Assembly: GCA_963762145.1 (NCBI GenBank)
Contig: CAVXJS010000021.1
Coordinates: forward strand, 1,162,671 to 1,226,670
DNA length: 64,000 nucleotides
Source of the DNA: an uncultured Candidatus Rokubacteria bacterium
Lineage (GTDB): Bacteria; Methylomirabilota; Methylomirabilia; Rokubacteriales; CSP1-6
Direction: 5' to 3'
Shown here: one piece after another, positions 23,800 through 25,533 of the stretch
How positions within the stretch are numbered: position 1 is the first letter of the stretch
Layout: each line of letters begins with the position of its first letter
Translations under genes and position numbers: made by a program
The notes under the pieces: generated by a model
What the model was told of the DNA's origin: nothing
What the model saw: the letters and a program-made list of their open reading frames with translations, nothing else
The model's database searches: none

Positions 23800-24306
23800 A
23801 TGGCACGAGACGGCCTCCTGATCGGTGAGGTAGCGGGGAAGAGCGGAGTTAGTCGCAAGGCGCTCCGTCTGTACGAAAAGGCCGGCATTCTGCCGCCCCC
23901 TCGGCGCACCGGGTCGGGCTATCGGATGTATGGCCCGGAGACGCTGGGCCTACTCGGGTTCGTCACGCAAGCGCGCCGGCTCGGCTTCCGACTCGAGGAA
24001 ATCAAGCGCATCGTTGTGCTCAAGCGGTCGGGCCGAACGCCCTGTAAGCACGTCTTAGACCTCGTTCAGCTAAAGCTGAACAACATCGACCAAGCGCTCA
24101 CGGACCTGGCAGAAGTCCGGGGGCAGCTTCGCGGGCTGCTCCGGTCCTGGCAGTCCCGCCGACACCGTTTTGCCGCTGTCTGTCCCTGTATCGAGCATCT
24201 AACCATCGTGAAGGGAAGGGAGGTGAACCAGAATGGAAAATCGCAAGGTGTCGCTGTGCCCAACCGGGTGTGGTCAGTGCCCAGACGTGGAGATGGCCGG
24301 CGATGA
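23800..24306 (+). CDS. MerR-family heavy-metal-responsive regulator
   Basis: IGEVA..SGVSRKALRLYE, GYRMY, GFRLEEI, Cys in PCKHV and CPCIE. Confidence 0.9.
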   Translation: MARDGLLIGEVAGKSGVSRKALRLYEKAGILPPPRRTGSGYRMYGPETLGLLGFVTQARRLGFRLEEIKRIVVLKRSGRTPCKHVLDLVQLKLNNIDQALTDLAEVRGQLRGLLRSWQSRRHRFAAVCPCIEHLTIVKGREVNQNGKSQGVAVPNRVWSVPRRGDGRR

Positions 24307-24508
24307 GGTGCGGATCGGCGAAGCAGGGAACCTCGCCGTCCTCAAGAAGGACGAATGGAACCTGCTCGTTGATCTGATTCAGTCCGGTCAGTTGACGAAG
24401 GTCTCGCGGTCCCAAGGAGTGTGGGCCCGCACGAGTGGCAGGGGGAGCGATCCTCACCACTCGTGTTGCCTGCCTTTCGGATTCAACCTAAACGACGCTA
24501 CCTCGTAG
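24233..24508 (+). CDS. Small Cys-rich putative metal-binding protein
   Basis: RBS GGAGG; LCPTGCGQCPDV...IGEAGN..LKKDEWN.LV. Confidence 0.65.
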   Translation: MENRKVSLCPTGCGQCPDVEMAGDEVRIGEAGNLAVLKKDEWNLLVDLIQSGQLTKVSRSQGVWARTSGRGSDPHHSCCLPFGFNLNDATS

Positions 24509-25238
24509 CGCACACCTCAGCCGCGGTCACGCGAGGGTCCTTGCATCGTGCGTTTCGCGTCGTGCGCAGTATGACAGCCTCACGGAACCCAGCCTCGCGG
24601 AACTCGCTCAGGAAGGTCACGCCTTCCTTGGCTCCGGCTACTCAGGCAAACCACTCTGCTTCGGTGAAATGGTCTGGTTTCGATACAGCTTCTTCTAAGA
24701 CTAACTCCGCGACGTAGACGTGTCCCCCCGGCCGTACGACCCGCGCGAGTTCTCGGAAGATGTCCGCGCGAGCGGGATTCAAGTTGAAGATGCCGTTCAC
24801 GAGCGCCACGTCTACCGAGGCGTCGTCTAACGGTAGTCGTTCGGCGTCACCCTGGTAGAAGGTCACTACATCGACGCCAGCCTCAGCGGCAGCGTGTCGG
24901 GCACGGGTGAGCATCGCCTCGCTAAAGTCGATACTGGTGACTCGGCCGGTGGGACCTACACGTCTCGCCAAGATGAGGCTGTCGAGTCCCGCCCCGCATC
25001 CGAGGTCGAGAATTTGAGCATCGGTAGGGATCGGTGCGGACAGAGCTAAGGTCGAAACTCCCGCGAACGCCTCGACGGCCACGAGGGGCAGCGCGTCGAG
25101 CAGGTCGGCGGGGTAACCCAACCGCTCGGCCAACACTCGACCTACGGGGAAGGCGTGCTTCTGCGCGGGCCGTTCAGCGGCAGCAGAATAGGCGTTATGG
25201 ACTGCGTTCCTGAGTTGTACTGAATCGTGGTTTGGCAT
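24498..25238 (-). CDS. ArsM-like SAM methyltransferase, predicted selenoprotein (UGA at 24642-24644)
   Basis: LDLGCGAGLD, NGIFNL; after WFA-TGA the frame continues VAGAKEG..FREAGF to TAG 24498; hairpin follows the UGA. Confidence 0.8.
24610..24628 (-). promoter_or_regulatory. Putative bacterial SECIS hairpin
   Basis: AGGAAGG-CGUGA-CCUUCCU; loop starts 20 nt after the UGA, G at loop position 2. Confidence 0.7.
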
Positions 25239-25533
25239 GGGCCGGCACCCCCACGAGATGGTTAGTCGTATCGGAGGTGACTATAGCTCCAGCCATATCT
25301 GATCGCAAATGCCTATAGTCGAGTGCGTGGCTACGGCTTGTACCGAACCAGGTCAATCCAGAACGTGTCCGGTTGCGTGTAGCATATCCAGCCCCCGCAA
25401 CCAATAAATGAGCGGTTAGCCAGGATCGGCTGACTCCTCCTCGTTTCTGTCCGTGTTACTGTCCGCGATCAGAATGAAACAGGAAGAATGGCAGGTCATC
25501 GCTAGAGAGGCCTGGCCGGTCCGGACTCGCCCC

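Follow-up and report, generated by a model that had tools for sequence, protein, structure and literature searches.

A predicted selenocysteine-containing methyltransferase of the ArsM/AS3MT-like lineage in a Candidatus Rokubacteria genome

We analysed a stretch of 64,000 nucleotides (hereafter the window; positions 1,162,671 to 1,226,670 of contig CAVXJS010000021.1, assembly GCA_963762145.1) from the genome of an uncultured Candidatus Rokubacteria bacterium. A gene on its minus strand very probably encodes a selenoprotein, a class I S-adenosylmethionine (SAM) methyltransferase of 246 amino acids (aa) from the ArsM/AS3MT-like lineage. The open reading frame (ORF) at 24642..25238 on the minus strand comprises 198 codons from the ATG at 25238 and ends with ...TEAEWFA followed by TGA (24644-24642). 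When this TGA is read as selenocysteine (Sec, U), the frame goes on for 47 codons to a TAG at 24498-24500, and the resulting 246-aa product contains a single U, at residue 199. The initial annotation had claimed both this extension and a perfect 7-bp hairpin 13 nt past the UGA; translation and folding bore out the two claims. The residues directly after the UGA begin VAGAKEGVTFLSEFREAGF, the 47 codons as a whole are translated as VAGAKEGVTFLSEFREAGFREAVILRTTRNARCKDPRVTAAEVCATR, and the C-terminus reads ...AAEVCATR before the TAG. The hairpin is described below as resembling a bacterial selenocysteine insertion sequence (SECIS). The elements of the gene, in window positions, are:

24498..25238, minus strand: full coding sequence of the putative 246-aa selenoprotein (ATG 25238-25236, Sec-UGA at codon 199, TAG 24500-24498)
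24642..24644, minus strand: in-frame UGA, predicted from the homologue alignment to encode Sec (U199), in the motif W-F-A-U-V-A-G-A
24610..24628, minus strand: SECIS-like hairpin AGGAAGG-CGUGA-CCUUCCU, starting 13 nt past the UGA
24501..24641, minus strand: C-terminal extension of 47 codons (residues 200-246), predicted to contribute a helix and the two final beta strands to the methyltransferase fold

Among 35 distinct sequences of the clade, codon positions 1, 2 and 3 of the extension show 5484, 5314 and 16507 differences, respectively, third positions accounting for 60% of them, and none of the 35 contains a stop inside the extension. At the protein level, the extension is conserved across all homologues, down to 33-41% overall identity. 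An AlphaFold2 model computed from an alignment of 24 sequences (mean pLDDT 92.3, pTM 0.91) places a helix and two strands (219-228 and 237-245) after U199. In our reading of the model, these strands would be beta6 and beta7 of the class I fold, so that a 198-aa product would be an incomplete domain. Most of the best 120 database homologues are deposited as proteins of 194-200 aa (78-80% query coverage), often under the name 'arsenite methyltransferase'; they end at the Sec codon only because gene callers cut them there, and the public call for the window's gene is truncated in the same way.

The UGA codon is widely shared. A scan of 251 genomes of the phylum (homologue threshold E<=1e-40) returned 30 matches in 28 genomes, with an in-frame TGA in 29 of the 30 and TAA in one; without two unpublished genomes (G217 and G044), the TGA count is 27 of 28. 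Homology runs past the interruption in all 30 matches, so that the homologues do not end at this codon, a point which the initial annotation had singled out for checking. The available sequence was long enough to show this context in 28 homologue loci, and each of them has the TGA within the motif W-x-x-U-(I/V)-(A/G)-G-A. The two closest named genome records are a Methylomirabilota metagenome-assembled genome (MAG; 95% identity) and a Rokubacteria MAG (84% identity). The Cys/TGA pairing that had been suggested as a check is also found: the database protein P0114 is a full-length Cys form of 246 aa, 57% identical, with the same C-terminal tail (...NDWFACITGAKEGGAFLDEFRVAGFREATILRTSRNARTKDQ...), and its metagenome relatives have TGA at the codon in 26 of 27 cases and TGT in one (L064).

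The full-length frame itself stops with TGA in L038, L039, L044, L045, L054, L057, L060 and L062, and in L038, L039, L044, L045 and L062 this second TGA is the real stop 47 codons past the Sec-TGA. Use of TGA once as Sec, with the hairpin, and once as stop in the same gene fits context-dependent decoding. Runs X9 and X12, from two other studies, provide contigs (depth ~3) that span the UGA site and show no alternative letter, neither the TGC nor the TGG that the initial annotation had considered. Tryptophan, glycine or arginine stands at the Sec position in the database translations P0199, P0122, P0170, P0261, P0127 and P0242; the W and G may stem from metagenome gene calling under genetic codes 4 and 25, in which TGA is translated.

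The genome from which the window comes (6.26 Mb, 25 contigs, 88% complete) also contains the Sec machinery, in support of the Sec interpretation put forward in the initial annotation. The selA gene (577 bits) adjoins selB (363 bits) on contig C9, and a tRNA-Sec gene lies ~1.4 kb from selA (69 bits in Rfam; called by ARAGORN as tRNA-SeC with anticodon tca). Two selD genes are present, and selA, selB, selD and tRNA-Sec all score above their family cut-offs. The best selD match (C11:419505-420437, locus L010) contains one in-frame TGA, so that this SelD is probably a selenoprotein itself; the second selD, on contig C14, has no TGA.

Bacterial SECIS elements are constrained to a set distance from the UGA and to a G early in the loop. 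The hairpin AGGAAGG-CGUGA-CCUUCCU (24628..24610 on the minus strand) has a perfect 7-bp stem and is present in the minimum free energy (MFE) fold. We defined a strict hairpin as an uninterrupted stem of 7 or more Watson-Crick pairs closing a loop of 3-8 nt, located 8-45 nt downstream. By this definition, the background in the window is 1.4% of positions (916/63940 per strand), and a strict hairpin follows 22 of its 1482 TGA triplets. The strict test is passed by 23 of 29 loci, the window's own included, and by 22 of 27 once the two unpublished genomes are left out. Folding of 28 homologue loci placed a hairpin 12-19 nt past the UGA in every one, L051 and L057 having a slightly different stem in the MFE fold. 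Four clades carry four unrelated hairpin sequences, encoding the peptides KEGGAFL, LPEAGLL, LLEGEY and VTRKVFL, at about the same place. Within clade A, to which the window's gene belongs (36 sequences), five of nine pairs have changed on both sides, and 0 of 500 shuffles reached so high a value; the outermost proposed pair (16-36) is not real, being unpaired in 31 of the 36 sequences. We know of no family for bacterial SECIS elements in Rfam, and an Rfam scan of 24300-25400 returned only a chance match to mir-999 (E 0.79). A crude screen of the window for TGA codons with a strict hairpin and open flanking frames gave 10 further sites, none of them with a protein-like translation.

Several observations nevertheless weigh against decoding of the UGA as Sec through this hairpin. 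The whole 81-nt stretch is no better folded than its shuffles (z -0.79), and only the local hairpin stands out. Six of the 29 loci fail the strict test, with MFE stems that are shorter or contain G-U pairs. The hairpin is located within the coding region, and the peptide KEGGAFL dictates part of it. A G-U-containing version persists in the Cys form L064, so that the hairpin does not occur exclusively with UGA; either the peptide accounts for part of the structure, or this Cys form arose recently. In L056 (genome G006, contig C265), TAA replaces TGA while the downstream frame is fully conserved (IGGALLEGDYLEAIRSAGL...); the gene may have been inactivated recently, the codon may vary between strains, or the assembly may be wrong here. 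Finally, run X16 (labelled RNA, probably DNA; contigs) spans 25007-25230, a segment that does not include the UGA. Because the machinery, the conservation of the TGA, the Sec/Cys pairing, the coding constraint, the fold and the hairpin combine, we regard the Sec reading of the UGA as very well supported by the sequence data.

The protein family was addressed by profile and structure searches. In Pfam, the protein matches Methyltransf_31, Methyltransf_25 and Methyltransf_11, with Methyltransf_31 at 1.8e-28. The top NCBIfam models all remain below their cut-offs: NF041537 (170 bits, cut-off 510), NF047649 (159, cut-off 460), NF008823 for arsenite methyltransferase (150.1, cut-off 263) and NF041536 (145, cut-off 575), and in NF041537, NF047649 and NF041536 only the methyltransferase part is matched. 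None of the 251 genomes of the phylum reaches the cut-off of NF047649. A profile search of the PDB was led by ArsM structures (5evj, E 1.8e-38; 4fr0, 2.3e-37), and Foldseek ranks 1-11 are all ArsM or AS3MT (TM 0.63-0.69). The protein has the class I SAM methyltransferase fold, and its N-terminal segment resembles that of ArsM.

Four cysteines define arsenite methyltransferases (AsMTs), namely Cys44, Cys72, Cys174 and Cys224, and all four are required for As(III) methylation, according to PMC6138428. In the profile alignment to CmArsM 4fr0, with residue numbers counted along the printed alignment, Cys224 faces U199, in agreement with the earlier suggestion that the UGA occupies the C-terminal Cys position of ArsM. 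The other Cys positions, which had been read as substituted, are so in this alignment: Cys72 faces Val61 (FAGVS) and Cys174 faces Gly149 (VNGIFNL). An equivalent of Cys44 is absent, because the first Cys of the protein is C81, in motif I. The position of Cys224 is thus the only one of the four that is kept, as Sec. In the alignment of 24 sequences (A1), N148, G149, N152, L153, W196, U/C199, G202 and A203 are invariant, and the absence of the three other ArsM cysteines is likewise invariant across the clade.

A wider sample of the family, the best 150 cluster representatives at 50% identity, places this pattern in a broader context. Gly occupies the Cys174 position in 116 of the 150, and the canonical Cys/Cys pattern is found in 26. 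Among the 116 Gly representatives, 32 have Cys at position 199 and 78 have nothing aligned there; 32 of these 78 end exactly at residue 198. Since the Gly pattern, with Cys or with an early end, spans the wider family, these alignments place the gene in a large one-nucleophile branch of ArsM-like proteins with both Sec and Cys forms. On this reading, the members of the clade would share Gly at the position of Cys174, lack the N-terminal pair of cysteines and have either Sec or Cys at that of Cys224, and the clade would be common in soil Methylomirabilota/Rokubacteria.

The same genome encodes a canonical ArsM elsewhere (contig C11:576203-577012), which reaches 367 bits against the NF008823 cut-off of 263. 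Its motifs CCG, GCGNP, NCVINL and GCVAGA contain all four Cys, and it has no Sec. This gene belongs to an ars cluster (L150, C11:574703-578512) with the order ArsR, ArsI/CadI-like, ArsM, MIP channel and ArsN1, in which the ArsI/CadI-like protein scores 87 bits (below the cut-off of 116) and the ArsN1 acetyltransferase 214 bits.

How might a methyltransferase with one such residue work? We propose that the UGA at codon 199 would be decoded as Sec by the genome's own SelA, SelB, SelD and tRNA-Sec, the mRNA hairpin 13 nt downstream serving as the SelB-binding SECIS element, and that translation past the UGA, through 47 codons to the TAG, would complete the seven-stranded fold. Sec199 would then take the place of CmArsM Cys224, which keeps its bond to the arsenical during the whole ArsM cycle. 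A soft substrate bearing a lone pair could be held by a single Se-X bond beside the methyl group of SAM and then be methylated. Such a one-ligand site would suit a substrate that needs one bond to the enzyme, not inorganic As(III), to which ArsM supplies three thiols. Possible substrates would be a dialkyl or methylated trivalent arsenical, or selenium, tellurium or sulfur species.

In the literature on ArsM, MAs(III) is described as bound by Cys174 and Cys224, and DMAs(III) as held weakly by Cys224 alone (PMC6138428); PMC3877260 agrees, giving three, two and one thiol ligands. We lean towards a physiological substrate other than inorganic arsenite, because three cysteines are missing, a canonical ArsM is encoded elsewhere in the genome, and the gene has neither conserved nor ars neighbours. 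The broader proposal, that this uncharacterised one-nucleophile clade methylates a non-arsenite substrate through a single Se-X (or S-X) bond, is in our estimate evenly poised; dimethylarsenite (in the last step to trimethylarsine) and selenium, tellurium or sulfur species are candidates. The initial annotation had already raised the possibilities of Sec as sole nucleophile and of a substrate other than arsenite: both ideas fit the alignments and the gene context, and we retain them in conditional form. On the opposite side, the argument about the substrate draws on two lines only, the missing cysteines and the gene context. Moreover, a selenol binds more strongly than a thiol does, and further ligands to arsenic could come from glutathione or another thiol, so that the enzyme may still methylate arsenic.

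This leads to the rival explanation that survives best, in which the protein is an arsenite methyltransferase like canonical ArsM, with Sec compensating and glutathione or mycothiol supplying the other ligands and the reducing power. Among solved structures and named families, the nearest are indeed all ArsM/AS3MT, the position that is retained holds the residue whose bond to arsenic lasts through the whole ArsM cycle (PMC6138428), and ArsM selenoproteins with Sec in the same UxxG motif have been catalogued (PMC13188914). In addition, a distant clade member (L063) lies ~650 nt downstream of an ArsR-family gene; this ArsR-type regulator is the sole ars-family match in the flanks of 15 homologue loci. 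However, all clade members lack three of the four cysteines that define AsMTs, the NF008823 score stays well below the cut-off, no arsenic-resistance structural genes flank the window gene or were found in the flanks of the 15 homologue loci, and a canonical four-Cys ArsM already resides in the genome's ars cluster. We therefore consider this explanation unlikely.

Far less probable still is that the UGA is an ordinary stop, ending a 198-aa protein, and that the frame beyond it is a decaying remnant or has stayed open by chance. The public calls of 194-200 aa for most of the best 120 database homologues and the TAA of L056 are what such a stop would predict. The 47 downstream codons are nevertheless conserved as protein, with variation dominated by third positions; TGA persists in 29 of 30 homologues of the phylum and in 26 of 27 metagenome relatives, with Cys in others; the truncated product would be without two core beta strands; and the Sec machinery is present together with a covarying hairpin. 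Least tenable of all is the view that TGC or TGT (Cys) or TGG (Trp) was misread or misassembled as TGA. Although the window stems from a MAG and W or G appears in the database translations P0199, P0122, P0170 and P0261, the TGA recurs in dozens of independent assemblies, the contigs of two further studies show it, at low depth, with no alternative letter, and the W/G translations may themselves be TGA under other genetic codes.

The preferred reading, a Sec-containing methyltransferase with one retained catalytic position, can be set against known systems. That the protein is a selenoprotein is not new in kind: ArsM-family selenoproteins have been listed since 2007-2008. PMC13188914 lists 'Arsenite methyltransferase, NF008823, UxxG, 1 Sec', citing Fomenko et al. 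2007 Science, in an entry that stands just before the sub-heading 'Predicted with high confidence'; the example given there is WP_011987699.1 (NF008823/PRK11873). arsM is also named among selenoprotein families in PMC2398784 (2008), and the arsenite methyltransferase selenoprotein family again in PMC9312934. PMC13188914 further attributes three fused or double ArsM/methyltransferase selenoproteins, also with UxxG, to Haft & Tolstoy 2025, and reports a Methylomirabilota MAG predicted to have 63 selenoprotein genes.

The window protein shares with the NF008823/PRK11873 selenoprotein family, as described in that source, the fold family and the position of Sec in U-x-x-G (here U-V-A-G), equivalent to CmArsM Cys224, and both are bacterial and SelB/SECIS-dependent (predicted here). 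In contrast to that family, it scores below the cut-off and has no equivalents of Cys44, Cys72 and Cys174. With CmArsM, CrArsM and human AS3MT (4fr0, 4fsd, 6cx6, 5evj, 8xt7), it has in common the class I SAM core, an N-terminal LGY...P segment and a nucleophile in the same loop. Unlike these enzymes, it keeps one of the four catalytic cysteines, as Sec, has no C-terminal domain (246 aa compared with crystallised chains of 377-387 aa) and does not belong to an ars operon. The UxxG motif is also shared with the selenoproteins NF041537 (ArsM/AhpD), NF047649 (methyltransferase/UXPK-star double) and NF041536 (ArsM/DUF2284), whereas the window protein has one Sec, no fused AhpD or DUF2284 and no C-terminal UXPK. 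The genome's own canonical ArsM is a family paralogue with the same W-x-x-C-x-A-G-A loop; it differs in its four Cys, the lack of Sec, its ars cluster and its passing of the NF008823 cut-off. The gene is thus not a new type of system, though it is real, mis-annotated in public records and represented by no curated model at cut-off. A search of accessible papers on the function of the one-nucleophile clade found nothing; Haft & Tolstoy 2025, Fomenko et al. 2007 and a groundwater selenoproteome study, or their supplements, may list the clade.

Recognition of the clade has practical consequences. No curated model reaches its cut-off for these proteins and the deposited sequences are cut at the Sec codon, so that surveys of arsM or of selenoproteins in soil metagenomes miss the full protein and mislabel it. 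Furthermore, the clade keeps one of the four ArsM cysteines, often upgraded to Sec, and offers a natural test of the one-ligand steps of metalloid methylation. It may point to a methylation substrate other than arsenite; if so, it would represent an unrecognised enzyme of metalloid or chalcogen volatilisation in soils.

The gene neighbourhood was considered as a clue to function and set aside, as no conserved partner is present in the flanks of the 15 homologue loci. LysR occurs twice in these flanks, an MFS gene with an amidohydrolase twice within one genus and ArsR once, the other genes being unrelated. In the window, the selenoprotein gene is convergent with a gene for a MerR-type regulator (23800..24306, plus strand), which resembles heavy-metal sensors (CueR 90 bits, MerR 82 bits) and scores below every NCBIfam cut-off. 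A small Cys-rich ORF of 91 aa (24233..24508, plus strand), beginning MENRKVSLCPTGCGQCPDVE..., follows the MerR-type gene and shares 11 nt with the 3' end of the Sec gene; it matched no family in Pfam or NCBIfam. Both the MerR-type gene and the Cys-rich ORF are kept in L035, from the same genus (91% and 83% identity), and are already gone in L036 (84% identity).

Two further features of the minus strand are weak consensus matches:

25280..25308, minus strand: sigma-70-like promoter match TTGCGA-17-TATAGT, ~42 nt 5' of the ATG, by consensus only
24495..24511, minus strand: terminator-like hairpin, over the full-length TAG and not over the TGA

In the 2-kb region, one sigma-70-like match was found where 0.4 would be expected, and three terminator-like sites where 1.6 would be expected, which is weak evidence in the latter case. 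Upstream of the gene, the segment 25537..29454 contains genes for a small membrane protein (weakly COX1-like), a Crp/Fnr-type regulator, a ScdA_N (DUF542) protein, a DUF2249/TusA-like protein and a COX1-like membrane protein, which together look like a nitric-oxide or redox stress cluster.

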